NCBI GenBank assembly: GCA_021787535.1 | Contig: JAJYLR010000001.1 | Span: forward strand, 492,321 to 556,320 | Reading direction: 5' to 3' | Origin: a bacterium | Lineage (GTDB): Bacteria; Patescibacteriota; CPR2; UBA1875; JAJYID01 | DNA length: 64,000 nucleotides | Shown here: one piece after another, positions 11,733 to 23,169 of the stretch | Layout of the letters: every line of letters starts with the position of its first letter | Numbering within the stretch: the stretch's first letter is position 1 | Translations under genes and position numbers: made by a program | The notes under the pieces: generated by a model | Told to the model about the DNA's origin: nothing | Databases searched by the model: none | What the model saw: only the letters and a program-made list of their open reading frames with translations

Positions 11733-11760
11733 TTGACAATCTCTTCACTTAGTGTATAAT
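11733..11760 (+). promoter_or_regulatory. consensus sigma70 promoter TTGACA-N16-TATAAT
   Basis: read directly. Confidence 0.5.
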
Positions 11761-11836
11761 ATAATGTCTGGTGAGAAAAGTATGGAAGCTTAACTCACCG
11801 GGCACGTACCTGAAAATCACTACCCAAGGAGGGGTC

Positions 11837-12097
11837 ATGAGTAAAACTGAAAGGTTTTGGGCAATCCTCGGTGCGGTCGGTCGAGGACTTTGGTGGTGTT
11901 TCAGACACCCAAAAGAGACGGCCGCCTCGCTCATAATATCCTTTTTCCTTTTAACTCTTTTCGTTAGCATCTTCTCTGAAAATTTAGCTAACGAAATCTT
12001 CGGTCGGGTATTATACACGATCGGAGTCCCTGTGATTATTAGCATTGCGCTATATATGATCATTGCAGGGAAGAAACCGGGGAAAAAGAAGGATTGA
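11837..12097 (+). CDS. hypothetical small membrane protein (86 aa)
   Basis: ATG with perfect AAGGAGG SD 6 nt upstream; two hydrophobic helices; lysine-rich C-terminus. Confidence 0.45.
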   Translation: MSKTERFWAILGAVGRGLWWCFRHPKETAASLIISFFLLTLFVSIFSENLANEIFGRVLYTIGVPVIISIALYMIIAGKKPGKKKD

Positions 12098-12191: not shown

Positions 12192-12220
12192 TTGACAAAT
12201 ATTTTTTATGATGTATAATG
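12192..12220 (+). promoter_or_regulatory. consensus sigma70 promoter TTGACA-N17-TATAAT
   Basis: read directly; drives GC-rich non-coding region. Confidence 0.55.
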
Positions 12221-12226
12221 GTAATC

Positions 12227-12587
12227 ATTGTTTGGTGTTTTACTGAGCCCATTGTCACGAAAAGAGAATCCCGAATTTCAAAAAAAGAACGTGAGTTTGA
12301 TAAGATGCCAAACATGACCTTTACACTTTCTCCTCAGTTCTCGGCGCCTCGCCGCCGCTTTGCGTTTATGCGTTCAGGGGGCGCAGGATGAAAAAAATAA
12401 GTCGAGAAGGAGAGGAGAAAGAAGCAGCGATTTTTCCGCGGAGAATCGCTGCGAGCAGTGGGAATTTTGGCAACATGAAGTCGACCGCCAATCTCACTGC
12501 ACCTCGCAAGGGATAGTTTATTTATCTGCACATGGCGGATAAATTGTTCTTGCGGGGCGAAAGGGGCGCATATGCGCCCCTTTTTTT
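12227..12587 (+). ncRNA. candidate structured non-coding RNA (~360 nt), unidentified class
   Basis: bounded by consensus promoter and strong terminator; locally GC-rich (>55%) in AT-rich genome; multiple complementary segments (CTTTCTCCTC/GAGGAGAAAG; GCAGCGATT/AATCGCTGC 9-bp stem); no convincing ORF. Confidence 0.35.
12563..12587 (+). terminator. rho-independent terminator
   Basis: 18-bp perfect palindrome GGGGCGCATATGCGCCCC followed by TTTTTTT. Confidence 0.8.
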
Positions 12588-12588
12588 A

Positions 12589-12617
12589 TTTACTTGGATT
12601 AGCCAAAACGATAAAAT
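12589..12617 (+). promoter_or_regulatory. putative promoter TTTACT-N17-TAAAAT, leaderless (ATG 7 nt downstream)
   Basis: read directly. Confidence 0.35.
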
Positions 12618-17772: not shown

Positions 17773-18363
17773 ATGTCAATCAATCAAATGGCTGAAACAA
17801 AGATTATCCAAGAAGCCAAGGAATATTTCCTTCTTACCTTAGAAGAAATGCCGAAACTCTTAGGAGATATCCTTTCAAAACATCTGCAAATCATGCCGAA
17901 ATGGACCGAAAAAATCCTCACGATGTATTCCGAAGCTGATCCGGAAATCGTGGGAATAGCAGCATGGTTCCATGATATTGGATATCTGGACTGCGAAAAT
18001 TTCTCCGAAGATGATCATGCGGTGTACTCTGAGAGAAGGGTGATAGATTTTCTGGTTGATCGCAGTTACCCGCAGGATAATCTCGAAAAAATAGCGCATT
18101 GCATCCGCGCCCATCGCTGTCGCGATATTCAACCTATTACTCTTGAAGCAAAGATTATCGCTGTAGCCGACTCCGCCAGTCATCTCACTGACTACGCTTA
18201 TATCAATCTCATTCAGTTGGAGAGTAGGGAATATGCTTTGCAGAAATTGAAACGAGATTATCGAGATCTCGGTCTTCTGCCTGAGGTAAAGGCAGAATTA
18301 AATCAACTTTATGCAGCATGGTTGCAGTTGATAGCATGTTTTCCTGAATGGAAAATAGCATAA
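17773..18363 (+). CDS. HD-domain phosphohydrolase-like protein
   Basis: AAWFHDIGY HD motif and upstream His; AAGGAG SD. Confidence 0.55.
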   Translation: MSINQMAETKIIQEAKEYFLLTLEEMPKLLGDILSKHLQIMPKWTEKILTMYSEADPEIVGIAAWFHDIGYLDCENFSEDDHAVYSERRVIDFLVDRSYPQDNLEKIAHCIRAHRCRDIQPITLEAKIIAVADSASHLTDYAYINLIQLESREYALQKLKRDYRDLGLLPEVKAELNQLYAAWLQLIACFPEWKIA

Positions 18364-18389: not shown

Positions 18390-18413
18390 ACGCCCGGGTC
18401 AATGCCCGGGCGT
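18390..18413 (+). terminator. rho-independent terminator
   Basis: ACGCCCGGG-TCAAT-GCCCGGGCGT perfect hairpin then T-rich tract. Confidence 0.7.
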
Positions 18414-18447: not shown

Positions 18448-18477
18448 TTGACATTTGAACTTGAGTTGTGCTATAAT
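18448..18477 (+). promoter_or_regulatory. consensus sigma70 promoter TTGACA-N17-(C)TATAAT
   Basis: read directly. Confidence 0.55.
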
Positions 18478-18494
18478 ATGGTTCAGATATTAGA

Positions 18495-18517
18495 AATCTG
18501 AATTCTGAATTCAGATT
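18495..18517. promoter_or_regulatory. 23-bp palindrome AATCTGAATTC-T-GAATTCAGATT in 5'UTR (candidate operator)
   Basis: 11-bp perfect arms around single central base, immediately downstream of promoter. Confidence 0.4.
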
Positions 18518-18536
18518 ATCGAAAAACAAGACAATT

Positions 18537-19607
18537 ATGGCAAAAATGCAAACAACATTGAAAAACAAAGATCTGGCAGGAGGAAAACAAGGAGATTTTA
18601 GCCAGATGGCTGCTTTAGTGTTGTCAAGAAATATCCTAAAAAAGGAACGGGATATCAATGTCCTTACAGAAAGATATGGCATAAAGGGCGAGAAACCCAA
18701 AACACTCGAGGCAATAGGAAAAAAACTGGGAGTCACTAGGGAAAGGGTGAGACAGATTGAAAAAGCAGCACTCACAAAAATCGAAAAACAAGCGTCGAAA
18801 ATAGAAAAAATTCAGAGCTTTCACCAAAAACTCGATAAAAAGATCGAGGATTTTGGCGGCCTTGTAAATGAAGAGAGGTTAATCTCCGCTTTTATTGAAA
18901 CAAAGAAACAAAATCCAGCGGAAGTTAATGCCTTTTTATTGCTTGTTCAGTTAGACACTAAGCTGATGCGCCACGGCGAGAGTAAAGAAACAAGAAACTA
19001 CTGGATTTTGAAAAAAGCTGATCAGAAAAAATTCCTCGAGCTTTCAAAAGAAATTAATAATCTCTTGGAGAGAAAGAAAAAAGTTATTAGCGCCGAAGAT
19101 ATAGCGAAAGAATTATCCGCTTCTCGGGTAACGATCGAGTCACTTTTGTGGATTAAGAAAAATACGCTTCAAACCGAGGAGAAAAAATGGGGGCTCATTA
19201 CTTGGCGCGAAGTAAACCCGAAAAGTATCAAAGACAAAACATATATCATTATGAAGAAGCATAAAAAACCGCTTCATTACAGTGAAATAACAAAGAAAAT
19301 CCTAGCACACAGACTTCAAAAAAGACCGGTTACTAAGCAAGCGGTACATAATGAACTGATAAGAGACGATAGATTTGTCCTGATAGGCCGAGGTATTTAT
19401 GCACTCAGTGAATGGGGCTATAAACCCGGGGTTGTCGAAGAGGTAATCGTTGAAATCCTGCGTGAAGCCGGCCACCCGATGCACAAAAATGAAATTATTG
19501 AACACGTTAAAAAACACAGAATTGTCAAAGAAACAACTGTTATCTTAAATCTGCAGAGGAATACTTTTAAAAGGGTAGCCAGAGCAACTTATACATTAGC
19601 AGACTAA
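18537..19607 (+). CDS. DNA-binding protein: N-terminal sigma-70 region-4-like HTH, C-terminal HARE-HTH (RNAP delta-like) domain
   Basis: ERYGIKGEKPKTLEAIGKKLGVTRERVRQIEKAALTKI = sigma r4 signature; C-terminus HYSEITKKIL...DDRFVLIGRGIYALSEWGY = HARE-HTH pattern. Confidence 0.5.
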   Translation: MAKMQTTLKNKDLAGGKQGDFSQMAALVLSRNILKKERDINVLTERYGIKGEKPKTLEAIGKKLGVTRERVRQIEKAALTKIEKQASKIEKIQSFHQKLDKKIEDFGGLVNEERLISAFIETKKQNPAEVNAFLLLVQLDTKLMRHGESKETRNYWILKKADQKKFLELSKEINNLLERKKKVISAEDIAKELSASRVTIESLLWIKKNTLQTEEKKWGLITWREVNPKSIKDKTYIIMKKHKKPLHYSEITKKILAHRLQKRPVTKQAVHNELIRDDRFVLIGRGIYALSEWGYKPGVVEEVIVEILREAGHPMHKNEIIEHVKKHRIVKETTVILNLQRNTFKRVARATYTLAD

Positions 19608-19692: not shown

Positions 19693-22600
19693 ATGTTTGA
19701 AATCTTAATTTATATTTTAAAGGGAATTTTTCAGCTTTTAATGTGGACGTGGTGGATTATAGTGCCCATCATTGCCATCATCGCTTTTCAAAATCATAGA
19801 AAAACCAAATGGGTGGAGAAGCTTGAAAGTATTGTACTCTCAGTCAGAATACCTAAAAATAGCGAAAAAGGACCTACATCAGCTGAAATGATGTTTGCCA
19901 GCCTTCATGGTATTTTAAAACCGATTCAAGATCTCAAAAAAGAAGGCGCCATACAAGAACATATAAGCTTTGAAATGGTTGCGGACGCTAAGTCTATTAC
20001 ATTCTATGTATGGACTCCTAAACACTTGCAAAATTTTGTTGAGGGACAAATTTATGCGCAATACCCTACAGCTGAAATATCAGCAGTCGATGATTACTCA
20101 AAAAATATCGATGTGGACCATGACGGAATAGACGACTGCGTCGCAGGATGTGAACTGAAACTTGTGAGACCGGACTATTTTCCAATTAAAACTTTTGTGA
20201 ACTTTGAAGTAGATCCTCTGGCTGGGATAACCGGCGCATTATCTAAAATAGAGAATGCAGATGAAAAAATGTGGATTCAAATTCTTACAAGGCCTGTCTC
20301 AGATAGTTGGAGAGATAAAGGACTTGCATACGCTGAAAATTTAAAAAATGGAACCGGACCAAGCCTCTTCACAAAGGCAGGAATCACACATGGCCTGATA
20401 ACGCTTCCAATTACAATCCTGCATGGAATCTTCAATGTTATAATGCCAGCTGAAGATTCAAAAGGCGGAGGAGGAGACCAAAAACTGCCGCACAATGTGG
20501 AAACATCGCTCGCATGCCTGGAGGAAAAAGCGAACAAGCTTGGGTATCAGGTTAAAATCAGATTAGTGTATGTAGCAAAGTCTAGAGAATTGGCTCGCCA
20601 ACACTTAAGGATTACAGCCGGTGCCTTCAAGCAGTTTAATACGACAATAGGTAATGGGTTTGCGCCAACAAAGATTAAAACCGGAAGAGATGTTTTGGAG
20701 GAGTACCGTGCCCGGCTTTTTACAGATAAAGGATTTGTTTTAAATATTGAAGAAGTGGCCTCGCTTTACCATCTTCCTCATGCATCCGTAGAAACCCCAA
20801 ACATAGTCTGGACTTCATCTAAAAAGGGTGAACCGCCTGCGAATCTTCCTTATGAAGGAATGGTTGCGCCAGAAGACCTCACAGTTTTTGCTGAAACAAC
20901 TTTCAGGGGACAACCTAAAAGATTTGGAATAAAAAAAGACGATAGAAGAAGACATATGTATATTATCGGTAAAAGTGGTACCGGCAAATCAAAACTTTTA
21001 GAGATTCTGGCGGTAGATGATATCGAAAGAGGGCAGGGTGTCGGAATAGTCGATCCTCATGGAGAACTTGTCCATGATGTTTTAAAAAGAATACCTGCAC
21101 ACAGGGTTAATGATGTAGTTTATGTCAATCCAGCAGACAAAGATTTCCCGGTCGGTTTTAACCCATTGGAAACCACGCCAGAGTTTAGAGAAGAAACAAC
21201 ATCGGGTTTTGTCGTCGCTCTGGAACGGCTCTTCGGCTATAGCTGGGGTCCGCGTCTTGAGTATGTCCTGAGATATACTGTCTTAGCCCTTACTTATACC
21301 GAAGATGCTACCATGCTTTCAATCATCAGAATGCTGACTGACAAAGATTATAGAAAAAAGGTTCTGGAACGGGTAGAAGACCCTGTTGTAAAAACTTTCT
21401 GGCTTAAAGAATGGACTACATATAATGACCGATTTCAGGCAGAAGCAGTGGCTCCAATTTTAAATAAGGTCGGACAGTTCACTGCTTCGCCGATTATTCG
21501 AAATATTGTCGGACAAGCTAAGGGTACCATAGACTTCGCCGAAGCAATCAATAACCAAAAAATCTTGTTAGTCGACCTTTCGACTGGAAAAATAGGGGAG
21601 GATAACGCCGAACTTTTAGGTTCATTTATCATTACAAAACTTCAACTTGCCGCTATGGCCAGGTCAAAGATAAGACCGGAAGACAGAAAAGATTTTTATC
21701 TGTATGTTGATGAGTTTCAAAACTTTGCTACTAAATCTTTCGCCACAATCCTGTCTGAAGCCAGAAAATACAAGCTCAATCTAACATTGGCAAACCAGTA
21801 CATCGCTCAAATGGAAGAGACAGTCCGAGATGCTGTTTTTGGCAATGTCGGCTCGCTGATATCATTTAGGGTCGGGGCAACGGATGCTTCTTATTTAGAA
21901 AGAGAATTCAGTCCTGTCTTTGAGAAAAACGATCTCATTAATCTCGATAATCAGCATTTGTACCTTAATATGCTCATCGACGGTGTCACAACCATACCTT
22001 TCAGCGCTAAAACTATCAATGTGGCCGCTCCGGATCCGGCAAAAGATAATACTGAAAAAATTGTCCAAGCTTCAAGAGAGAGGTATAGTATCTCGAGACA
22101 GGAGATAGAAGATAAGATCACCAAATGGACCAATATTGATAAAATTGATATCGGCGCCAGAATGGATAAACAGGAAAAATCAAGATTTGAAAAAACTAAT
22201 GAAGAAATTGAACAAGAAGCGCGGATAAAAAAGAGCAGTCAATTTAAAAGAACCGATCCACAGAAAAGTACTAAACAAAATCCTGAAACGATCCAGGTTA
22301 AAAAGAGTGTTGATCCGGAAGAACTAAAGAAAATTATTCAGAAAGTAACCCGTCCCACCACTCAAAGCCAGAGCTTGGCAAAAGGAAGCAGCGACGAAAA
22401 TAAGCAAGAATCCCAAGACAATGTAAATCAAGTGAGGGGAGTTCAAAATGTCCAAAATGCACCTATACTTAAGAAAATTCAAGAGATCACTAATAAAGAA
22501 TCTGCACAGCCGTCAAACAAGATTCCAAACAAAGTAGAAGAAACAATTCGAGAAAAGCTTGCAAAACAAGCTTTAAGCGACAGCCCCAAAAACCGGGAAT

Positions 22601-23169
22601 CTATCGATCAAAAGACCGGCAAAGGCAGTCAAAACCAAGCATCTCAAGAGCAGCAGCCGAAAAAAACTCAGCCAGCGAGTATCGAAATTTCAAAAACATT
22701 CACGCCTGCAGCAAAATGGCAGGATAATAATATAAAAAGCAATATCGCAGCTCCAGCTCAAAAGCAGGACACGAAAAAGAACAAAGAACCGGAGGTCAAG
22801 ACGCAGCAAGACAATGAGATAAAAAAAGGCGGGCCTTCCGGCAATCAAGCTGAGCAAGAAAAGCCGCTTCAGAACAAGGTTAAGCCCTCAATTAAAATTA
22901 CAAGATTTACCGGCGCTGCTTCAGCGGAGAAGGCAGAATTTCCAAAGCAAGAACAAAAAACCCAGGAAGCGCCGCAAAAAAAGCTAAGCGACACCGATAA
23001 AGAACCCAATCAAGGCCAAGATAAAAGAGTAATTAATCCTGTAGGCATACCGGCTATCATGATGAAGAGGTTTATCCCGGATGATGAAAATATTAGAAAG
23101 TTGACTAGGGAAGAGTTCCTGAAACTTCAAGAGATACAGCCCAACGAGAAGATTATCATTATTGACTAG
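19693..23169 (+). CDS. membrane-anchored P-loop ATPase, TraD/VirD4 type IV coupling protein-like (also DUF87/HerA-like), with ~350-aa disordered K/Q/E-rich C-terminal tail
   Basis: N-terminal TM helices; Walker A IIGKSGTGKS, DPHGEL, Walker B FYLYVDEFQNF, ARKYKLNLTLANQYIAQ; residues ~800-1158 low complexity. Confidence 0.55.
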   Translation: MFEILIYILKGIFQLLMWTWWIIVPIIAIIAFQNHRKTKWVEKLESIVLSVRIPKNSEKGPTSAEMMFASLHGILKPIQDLKKEGAIQEHISFEMVADAKSITFYVWTPKHLQNFVEGQIYAQYPTAEISAVDDYSKNIDVDHDGIDDCVAGCELKLVRPDYFPIKTFVNFEVDPLAGITGALSKIENADEKMWIQILTRPVSDSWRDKGLAYAENLKNGTGPSLFTKAGITHGLITLPITILHGIFNVIMPAEDSKGGGGDQKLPHNVETSLACLEEKANKLGYQVKIRLVYVAKSRELARQHLRITAGAFKQFNTTIGNGFAPTKIKTGRDVLEEYRARLFTDKGFVLNIEEVASLYHLPHASVETPNIVWTSSKKGEPPANLPYEGMVAPEDLTVFAETTFRGQPKRFGIKKDDRRRHMYIIGKSGTGKSKLLEILAVDDIERGQGVGIVDPHGELVHDVLKRIPAHRVNDVVYVNPADKDFPVGFNPLETTPEFREETTSGFVVALERLFGYSWGPRLEYVLRYTVLALTYTEDATMLSIIRMLTDKDYRKKVLERVEDPVVKTFWLKEWTTYNDRFQAEAVAPILNKVGQFTASPIIRNIVGQAKGTIDFAEAINNQKILLVDLSTGKIGEDNAELLGSFIITKLQLAAMARSKIRPEDRKDFYLYVDEFQNFATKSFATILSEARKYKLNLTLANQYIAQMEETVRDAVFGNVGSLISFRVGATDASYLEREFSPVFEKNDLINLDNQHLYLNMLIDGVTTIPFSAKTINVAAPDPAKDNTEKIVQASRERYSISRQEIEDKITKWTNIDKIDIGARMDKQEKSRFEKTNEEIEQEARIKKSSQFKRTDPQKSTKQNPETIQVKKSVDPEELKKIIQKVTRPTTQSQSLAKGSSDENKQESQDNVNQVRGVQNVQNAPILKKIQEITNKESAQPSNKIPNKVEETIREKLAKQALSDSPKNRESIDQKTGKGSQNQASQEQQPKKTQPASIEISKTFTPAAKWQDNNIKSNIAAPAQKQDTKKNKEPEVKTQQDNEIKKGGPSGNQAEQEKPLQNKVKPSIKITRFTGAASAEKAEFPKQEQKTQEAPQKKLSDTDKEPNQGQDKRVINPVGIPAIMMKRFIPDDENIRKLTREEFLKLQEIQPNEKIIIID

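Follow-up and report, generated by a model that had tools for sequence, protein, structure and literature searches.

The 64-kb stretch of contig JAJYLR010000001.1 analysed here (the window) encodes, at 18537..19607 on the forward strand, a 356 residue protein with an ATG start that belongs to a Patescibacteria family in which a sigma region 4 domain (sigma4) is followed by four winged helices, and that is orthologous to SEML1_0294 of Southlakia epibionticum. Our leading interpretation, held tentatively and at slightly short of an even chance, is that this protein is a Patescibacteria-specific, DNA-binding general transcription factor that would read TTGACA boxes and most likely feed back on its own promoter. 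It is drawn from the invariance in this family of the sigma70 residues that read the -35 element, from the basic charge of the protein, and from a unique tie between its gene and a perfect promoter. Below, P0001 and P0002 designate public protein records, and L001-L085 orthologous loci.

An earlier sequence-only reading of this DNA had proposed sigma region 4 joined to a HARE-HTH domain (HTH, helix-turn-helix) in a protein devoid of sigma regions 2 and 3, and this is what Pfam, NCBIfam and a structure model all return. Pfam places Sigma70_r4 (PF04545) at residues 37-82 (E 9.7e-13, 47.9 bits against a cut-off of 24.1) and, for the whole protein, HARE-HTH (PF05066) at residues 230-293 (E 2.8e-11, 44.1 bits against a cut-off of 25.9); the two peptides singled out in that reading, TLEAIGKKLGVTRERVRQIEKAALTKI and FVLIGRGIYALSEWGY, are both present, at residues 56-82 and 280-295. 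No Pfam match to Sigma70_r2, Sigma70_r3 or an extracytoplasmic function (ECF) sigma domain was found in the 356 residue protein at E<=1. The NCBIfam sigma models (RpoD, RpoS, MzaA, others) align with it via their last ~60 positions only, at ~50 bits against cut-offs of 354-800, and the best scores were all below cut-off: 50 bits for MzaA (cut-off 800), 49 for RpoD (555) and 24 for sigma70-ECF (42.9). An AlphaFold2 (AF2) model built from a 40-sequence alignment (predicted local distance difference test score, pLDDT, 89.6; predicted template modelling score, pTM, 0.72) confines disorder to residues 1-18 and predicts sigma4 and then four tandem winged helices, which we number WH1 to WH4. When the part after sigma4 was compared with the Protein Data Bank (PDB) by Foldseek, the matches were tandem winged-helix arrays such as SelB, UFL1/DDRGK1, ESCRT-II and RPC62, and a search of a viral structure library gave no full-length analogue, just small stand-alone sigma4 proteins and phage sigmas. 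The protein is also strongly basic, with an isoelectric point (pI) of 9.9, a net charge of +29 and a pI of at least 9.0 for each domain (family median 9.6), which fits nucleic-acid binding. Domain profiles and predicted fold together describe a putative basic, five-domain nucleic-acid-binding protein of fixed family architecture.

This protein is not a sigma factor, because it lacks the core-binding and -10-reading regions. An ordinary or ECF sigma factor, complete with regions 2 and 3, is not what Pfam, NCBIfam and the AF2 model show, and is ruled out by them. That the protein might nonetheless be a sigma whose regions 2 and 3 have diverged, or part of a split sigma giving region 4 in trans to the primary sigma, strikes us as scarcely credible. 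Automatic annotations lean that way ('RpoS', 'specialized sigma subunit', 'sigma factor-like'), but neither Pfam nor NCBIfam detects a region 2 or 3, and four winged helices follow sigma4. The split-sigma version can be rejected for Saccharibacteria, since the Southlakia primary sigma RpoD (SEML1_0063) possesses its own region 4; that gene is essential and encodes regions 1.2, 2, 3 and 4 (PF00140, PF04542, PF04539, PF04545; Wang et al. 2023, Cell, PMC10633639). As to the start of the gene, an identical protein in public record P0001 begins at M24 (18606; 333 aa), a gene call that cuts off a conserved N-terminal segment; we prefer the 356 residue start because homologs keep an N-terminal MxKxxTxLKxK peptide and do not keep M24 itself.

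The sigma4 domain (residues 20-88; 18594..18800, forward strand), delimited by Pfam, Foldseek and alignment with RpoD, resembles region 4 of primary sigma factors. Foldseek matches it to sigma-A region 4 (1ku7, 3n97, 4g6d) with target-normalised template modelling scores (TMt) of 0.7-0.9 and 37-49% identity, 1ku7 and 3n97 being DNA-bound structures, and every phmmer match among PDB sequences was to a sigma factor, with primary sigmas at the top (S. aureus SigA at 3.7e-10, HrdB, B. subtilis SigA, Taq SigA). Residues 37-95 align with E. coli RpoD 553-610 with a single one-residue gap, located beyond the residues discussed here, so that residue n of the window protein is n+516 in RpoD. The recognition helix TRERVRQIE (residues 67-75; 18735-18761, forward strand) lies within this domain, and T67, R68, E69, R70, R72 and Q73 align with E. 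coli T583, R584, E585, R586, R588 and Q589. In an alignment of 40 homologs at 42-77% identity, 12 sigma4 residues are invariant: R38, R46, T56, L57, G61, T67, R68, E69, R70, R72, Q73 and I74. Genetics and structure have established R584, E585 and R588 as the readers of -31 and -33 in the -35 element (Hook-Barnard & Hinton 2007, PMC2613000). Every equivalent of a sigma70 residue used for reading TTGACA is kept in the window protein and is invariant across the 40 homologs, and R38, R46 and L57 correspond to E. coli R554, R562 and L573. These last three reportedly also contact DNA, a result attributed to Campbell and colleagues in 2002.

Relative to the primary sigmas (E. coli sigma70; SigA of T. 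aquaticus, S. aureus and B. subtilis), regions 4.1-4.2 align gap-free through the recognition helix with the -35 readers kept, but the family's sigma4 is N-terminal instead of C-terminal, detached from regions 1.2, 2 and 3, and fused to four winged helices. In model and alignment, the sigma70 C-terminal tail beyond residue 598 is replaced by a long helix running into WH1. The sequence-only reading had spoken of a '-35-binding or RNAP-associated regulator' (RNAP, RNA polymerase) of unusual architecture; as a class this remains the best supported, given a sigma4 that is 37-49% identical to primary-sigma region 4 and -35 readers that do not vary.

The gene is preceded by a perfect sigma-A-type promoter at 18448..18477 on the forward strand, matching consensus at 12 of 12 positions (-35 TTGACA at 18448-18453, -10 TATAAT at 18472-18477) with an extended -10 TGc at 18469-18471; transcription is predicted to start near 18484. 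The consensus hexamers had been recognised from the sequence alone, with a spacer given as 17 nucleotides (nt); the hexamers stand and the spacer is 18 nt. To our knowledge perfect consensus promoters are almost never met in nature, and the window holds 3 of them against ~0.1 expected by chance, as estimated from base composition. Upstream sequence was sufficient at 76 orthologous loci, of which 39 carry a 12/12 TTGACA-N16-18-TATAAT promoter within 160 nt of the start, with a spacer of 17 nt in all save three, and 15 more have an 11/12 match. We then counted perfect promoters on both strands of 80 species-representative orthologous loci, 833 kb in all: base composition predicts ~1, 42 were found, and 40 of these sit no more than 300 nt upstream of the family gene. 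A 12/12 promoter lies upstream of 35 of 534 ATG-initiated open reading frames (ORFs) of at least 150 aa, and the census implies that nearly all 35 are the family gene. A logo of 57 promoters anchored on the -35 box reads gTTGACAc ... TGcTATAAT or aTaTttTATAATT; it contains no further conserved operator around the promoter, and extra TTGAC/GTCAA copies upstream are slightly enriched overall. In many Saccharimonadia (e.g. L010, L011, L022, L024-L026, L031-L033, L041, L045, L048) the perfect promoter starts 36-40 nt before the first ATG and transcription is predicted to begin no more than a few nucleotides from the start codon, implying an mRNA that is leaderless or nearly so.

Surveyed for its distribution, the family proved large and uniform, with best-matching records almost all labelled Patescibacteria. 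An exhaustive profile search found 805 clusters (50% identity) at E<=1e-30. The best 150 listed of the 805 are 326-412 aa long and match over their full length, save for a 659 aa SecF fusion (P0189) that is probably a gene-calling artefact and was rejected as an informative fusion. All of the best 120 homologs carry both PF04545 and PF05066, nearly all at 333-377 aa, with 88-100% coverage, and two strict peptide patterns identify a relative in at least 585 species genomes. The best 80 records are labelled Saccharibacteria/Saccharimonadia, Gracilibacteria, Peregrinibacteria/Peribacteria, Howlettbacteria, Parcubacteria or Altimarinota, the exceptions being unlabelled metagenome-assembled genomes (MAGs) and one "Nanoarchaeia". 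The latter, L018 (DATIHE010000070.1, titled 'Candidatus Nanoarchaeia archaeon'), has the family gene with its usual DUF8128-ftsQ-murG-ftsW neighbours and a perfect bacterial promoter, and is probably a mis-binned or mislabelled MAG. The MAG CAYZIN01 contains two family copies (L052 and L079, with 11/12 and 8/12 promoters), which could be a paralog pair or reflect a mixed bin. NCBI names the protein "sigma factor-like helix-turn-helix DNA-binding protein" of Patescibacteria and JGI often "RNA polymerase delta subunit"; as labels for this family RpoS, delta subunit, EcfA2, 'specialized sigma' and 'membrane protein' are wrong or misleading.

The Southlakia ortholog supplies the genetic evidence, which is on record for this one species. 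SEML1_0294 (349 aa; PF04545 at 27-72, PF05066 at 225-283; PROKKA "RpoS") is listed as a core, Patescibacteria-enriched family and as essential at all three time points of transposon insertion sequencing (Tn-seq), its insertions falling from 24 in the input DNA to 1-2 after growth, and it is not discussed in the main text (PMC10633639, Tables S1/S2). The gene immediately downstream, SEML1_0293, encoding an ATPase resembling type IV secretion system (T4SS) coupling proteins, is non-essential, as is dprA (PMC10633639), so polarity cannot explain the essentiality of SEML1_0294. The window protein agrees with it in domain order, length (356 vs 349 aa) and synteny, and nothing architectural differs; what sets the window copy apart is the 18-nt promoter spacer and a lineage-specific palindromic insertion in the 5' untranslated region (UTR). 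No functional study of the family was found in the literature searched: it is already catalogued, and essential according to a supplementary table, and its architecture and promoter association are without a characterised parallel.

We infer DNA specificity, contact with RNAP, competition with sigma-A and autoregulation along the following lines. The free-standing sigma4 would bind -35-type TTGACA boxes without the rest of a sigma factor, and the protein would occupy, or compete for, the -35 elements of promoters as a general lineage-specific factor, with the conserved C-terminal pair of winged helices providing another contact, with RNAP or with the DNA alongside. With an optimal -35/-10 promoter on its own gene, the protein would be made very strongly, and that promoter would be the place where its occupancy of -35 boxes takes effect first, giving negative autoregulation at the promoter and not at the palindrome of the 5' UTR. 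Such autoregulation is plausible in view of the conserved perfect promoter and of a palindrome of inverted -35-like half-sites found in a distant clade. In the Peribacteria/Gracilibacteria/Altimarinota-type loci concerned, the promoter is imperfect and its -35 box is the right half of TGTCAA-N4-TTGAC(G/C), often preceded by TTGCCA. This element occurs at L039, L040, L053, L058 and L062, ~130-250 nt upstream of the start of the tblastn match; five of the six GTCAA-N4-TTGAC sites in 870 kb lie upstream of the family gene, and the half-sites are conserved while the N4 varies. The centres of its two inverted -35-like hexamers are 10 bp apart, and the arrangement resembles an operator for two sigma4 domains, a likeness that is suggestive only. 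Divergent back-to-back promoters were considered for this element and rejected, since a suitably spaced -10-like hexamer on the opposite strand was not seen on inspection by eye. Peregrinibacteria-type loci L065, L069, L072 and L076 have a different layout in the 300 nt upstream of the match, with two TTGAC boxes ~80 nt apart and between them a conserved leader (...TAGAAGAAAC.ATAA..TTGCA...TTTCTTGCTTGACGCGATA...AATGAATAA); either tandem promoters or a leader RNA that is conserved could account for this.

Several observations weigh against a -35-reading, self-regulating factor. Both hexamers and their spacing are perfect, not the -35 box alone, which makes selection for maximal RNAP binding, and hence very high expression, at least as likely a cause as binding by the protein itself. 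The C-terminal HARE pair is more conserved than sigma4 (27 of 73 and 17 of 59 invariant columns, against 12 of 69), and its key partner may therefore be a conserved protein such as RNAP. The TGTCAA-N4-TTGAC palindrome is found in just five loci of one clade, and a second TTGACA box is lacking from the promoter in the window. With 48 TTGACA copies against 34.6 +/- 6.2 expected, the window shows no depletion of this hexamer and hence no sign of genome-wide avoidance, and the neighbours are genes of DNA metabolism (dprA, topA, a TrwB-like ATPase, and in another clade ruvA) rather than of transcription.

The sequence-only reading had placed autoregulation elsewhere, at a 23-bp palindrome bound by this protein or by some other dimeric repressor, an explanation to which we now give little weight. 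The palindrome itself exists as described: AATCTGAATTC-T-GAATTCAGATT (11+1+11; 18495..18517, forward strand) is perfect, has no second copy in the window and lies well outside chance expectation (none of 100 shuffles gave a match), and at ~+11 to +33 of a ~52-nt 5' UTR it occupies a classical roadblock position, with additional TTCAGA/TCTGAA copies on its flanks. Yet the closest relative, P0002 (77% amino acid identity; L081/L082), has a near-identical promoter and a ~23-nt 5' UTR without the palindrome, which is also absent from L001 and L084/L085 and replaced at the same place by an unrelated GC hairpin in L002 and L083. It is on these grounds a lineage-specific insertion of ~30 nt and is not supported as the basis of autoregulation. 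The best upstream palindromes over the 76 loci have arms of mostly 4-6 nt, the longest 9, and share no common sequence, so a conserved operator is rejected; nor does the palindrome contain a TTGACA-like half-site for sigma4. As RNA it folds into a modest hairpin (-8.9 kcal/mol, z -1.9; 12 of 200 shuffles fold as well) that matches no Rfam family and is followed by no U-run, which rejects a terminator or attenuator, and its uniqueness within the window rejects a repeated element. An RNA 5' hairpin or an operator for some other factor are candidate roles. The palindrome is set within TTCAGA/TCTGAA repeats (18482-18524; direct repeat TTCAGATATTAGAAA / TTCAGATTATCGAAA) and includes two EcoRI sites (GAATTC-T-GAATTC), and by comparison with L081 the stretch looks like a small duplicated insertion. 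A second hairpin, assigned by the sequence-only reading to the same 5' UTR, is real but lies outside it: the GC-rich hairpin with T-rich tail AGTTCATTTG (18390..18413, forward strand; 10-bp stem with 8 GC pairs, loop of 4) is upstream of the -35 box and 27 nt past the stop codon of an HD-domain gene (17773-18363), a location that makes it the terminator of that gene and the 5' boundary of the transcription unit studied here.

The four winged helices differ greatly in conservation. WH1 (residues 89-160) and WH2 (161-224), together at 18801..19208 on the forward strand and modelled at pLDDT >90, have 0 of 72 and 3 of 64 invariant columns; searched domain by domain, WH2 gives a weak Pfam match to HTH_11 and WH1 none, and both are probably spacer or architectural modules. 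WH3 (residues 225-297; 19209..19427, forward strand) is the HARE-HTH domain and the most conserved part of the protein; it is modelled as a winged helix at pLDDT ~90, and on its own still scores 33.5 bits against the PF05066 cut-off of 25.9. WH4 (residues 298-356; 19428..19604, forward strand) is by fold and weak profile similarity another HARE-type winged helix, degenerate and highly conserved, with 22.8 bits to PF05066 (under the cut-off) and weak matches to Rok-WH and Penicillinase_R. Together WH3 and WH4 have 44 of 132 columns invariant across classes of the Candidate Phyla Radiation (CPR). A separate model of the pair (pLDDT 89.3) finds similarity at fold level only (E>1e-3), to the Rok DNA-binding domain, SelB, Z-alpha and the S. 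aureus delta subunit in the RNAP open complex 8x6g (8x6g_E, TMt 0.64), with a further fold-level match to the RpoE-RpoC model 9a6y. Single-sequence and profile searches of the C-terminal half against the PDB gave only spurious or insignificant matches, delta among them at E 1.1 in the profile search.

This similarity brings in the main alternative, which we regard as possible, though doubtful: that the protein is an accessory subunit bound to RNAP, a CPR counterpart of delta, whose HARE pair docks on the polymerase as delta docks on beta-prime through its N-terminal HARE-HTH domain. Sigma4 would then read an upstream -35-like box, or take the beta-flap tip instead of sigma-A region 4, tuning promoter escape or sigma release, and the perfect promoter would provide the near-stoichiometric abundance such a subunit needs. 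The HARE-HTH domain exceeds its Pfam cut-off, and the nearest named NCBIfam model for this part is RNAP delta (TIGR04567), whose score of 39.6 bits does not reach the cut-off of 42. The fold-level matches to delta in 8x6g_E and 9a6y point the same way; they are no better than those to Rok, SelB and Z-alpha. WH3/WH4 are conserved to a degree typical of core machinery, which would suit a partner protein that is itself conserved; the Southlakia ortholog is essential; and the TGTCAA-N4-TTGAC element sets two -35-like sites 10 bp from each other on the same face of the DNA, as expected were sigma-A region 4 and a second sigma4 to bind side by side. Sigma4 is moreover the beta-flap-binding domain in the holoenzyme (PMC2613000). 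Against a delta-like subunit, no RNAP or sigma genes, rpoD included, are found in the window or the ortholog loci, and the sigma70 tail beyond 598 is replaced in the window protein by the long helix into WH1. That tail contributes to flap binding in sigma70. RNAP delta is an acidic protein with a long, acidic, disordered C-terminal tail, and here the likeness to delta claimed in the sequence-only reading holds for the fold and fails otherwise: the window protein is strongly basic, its C-terminus is a folded winged helix, and delta's defining tail is absent. Compared with RpoE of Bacillota, with which it shares membership of the HARE-HTH superfamily through WH3, it is also about twice as long, and has two tandem HARE-type domains plus sigma4.

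The -35-reading factor and the RNAP-bound subunit could also be combined, in a form of bipartite promoter recognition in Patescibacteria that we consider improbable. The protein would be an essential second -35 reader on RNAP beside sigma-A, docked via the HARE pair, with sigma4 reading an adjacent -35-like box or replacing sigma-A region 4 at the -35 element and beta-flap. If so, the CPR holoenzyme would differ from that of any characterised bacterium in subunit composition and promoter grammar, and the wiring of the factor's own gene to the strongest possible promoter would act as a homeostat.

Gene order bears on yet another explanation. In the window and close relatives the order is der-pth-dprA-topA-(variable gene)-family gene-DUF8128/TrwB-like ATPase, then ftsQ-murG-ftsW on the other strand, and Southlakia has the same synteny of dprA-topA-x-gene-ATPase (SEML1_0298 to 0293). 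The downstream neighbour in the window (19693..23169, forward strand) is by Pfam a 1158 aa membrane-anchored TrwB/TraD/HerA-like P-loop ATPase of the DUF8128 type and a conserved same-strand neighbour; the corresponding ATPases of relatives match DUF8128 and TrwB_AAD_bind. Orthologs of this ATPase are 1100-1160 aa long, with a long low-complexity C-terminus rich in lysine and glutamine. No terminator was found in the 85-nt gap between the two genes, which are probably co-transcribed, and in 61 of 85 loci the family gene adjoins the ATPase gene. An abundant protein of the nucleoid or of DNA handling, coating or bridging DNA through five basic HTH modules with some preference for TTGACA and serving chromosome organisation or the neighbouring DNA processing and TrwB-like translocase, would suit this setting, as it would the basic charge, the five HTH or winged-helix modules and a promoter of maximal strength that suggests high copy number. 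WH3 and WH4 resemble, weakly and at the level of fold or profile, the DNA-binding domain of the nucleoid protein Rok and linker histone, and ruvA lies downstream in Peribacteria-type loci. We nonetheless judge such a role unlikely. The dprA and TrwB-like ATPase genes are non-essential in Southlakia while the family gene is essential; the strict invariance of the base-reading sigma4 residues favours a specific site over general coating; and the gene-ATPase pair is absent from loci of Gracilibacteria, Peregrinibacteria and Peribacteria, which retain the family protein. In Peribacteria-type loci L040, L053 and L058 there is no DUF8128 ATPase, ORFs resembling ruvA and purA (recognised by eye from their N-terminal motifs) follow the family gene, and an M50-type peptidase-like ORF precedes it.

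Among characterised systems, CarD and RbpA of Actinobacteria are essential, lineage-specific general factors at sigma-A promoters, whose contacts are with the beta lobe or sigma region 2 and with DNA around the -10 element. Their resemblance to the family would be one of function only, as an essential, lineage-restricted factor predicted to act at most housekeeping promoters; no relationship of sequence or fold is known, and the family protein carries a -35 reader instead. In B. subtilis SigO-RsoA, and in phage T4 with gp55/gp33 and AsiA/MotA, the sigma partner either has no region 4 or has a remodelled one, and region 4 function resides on, or is taken over by, a separate polypeptide. The family described here would share that idea, with the difference that the primary sigma, at least in Southlakia, has a complete region 4.

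The family presents a rare combination, being nearly lineage-restricted, uniform, essential in the sole species tested and tied to a perfect promoter across dozens of species, and it is built from a piece of the housekeeping sigma that as a rule is never seen by itself. Much of bacterial diversity belongs to the Patescibacteria, a group in which gene regulation has received very little study. Should the protein read -35 boxes, alone or as an extra RNAP subunit, it would represent a new type of general transcription factor and offer a handle on transcription control in bacteria with genomes of ~0.6-1 Mb and few regulators. The question is directly testable, since Saccharibacteria can now be transformed, and CPR genetics can take over the conserved promoter, a strong one, as it stands.

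The other two perfect promoters of the window lie on the forward strand, both of the form TTGACA-N16-TATAAT. The promoter at 12192 is followed by ~367 nt ending in a strong terminator (GGGGCGCATATGCGCCCC and a T-run; 12192-12592), and this RNA folds at -149.3 kcal/mol against -105.7 +/- 5.8 kcal/mol for shuffles (z -7.5; 0 of 100 as good). It matches no Rfam family at threshold and is a candidate novel structured non-coding RNA upstream of pth, an ORF that as listed probably starts too early. The promoter at 11733 precedes a hydrophobic ORF of ~86 aa (ATG at 11838; 11733-12097) that has a strong AAGGAGG ribosome-binding site.

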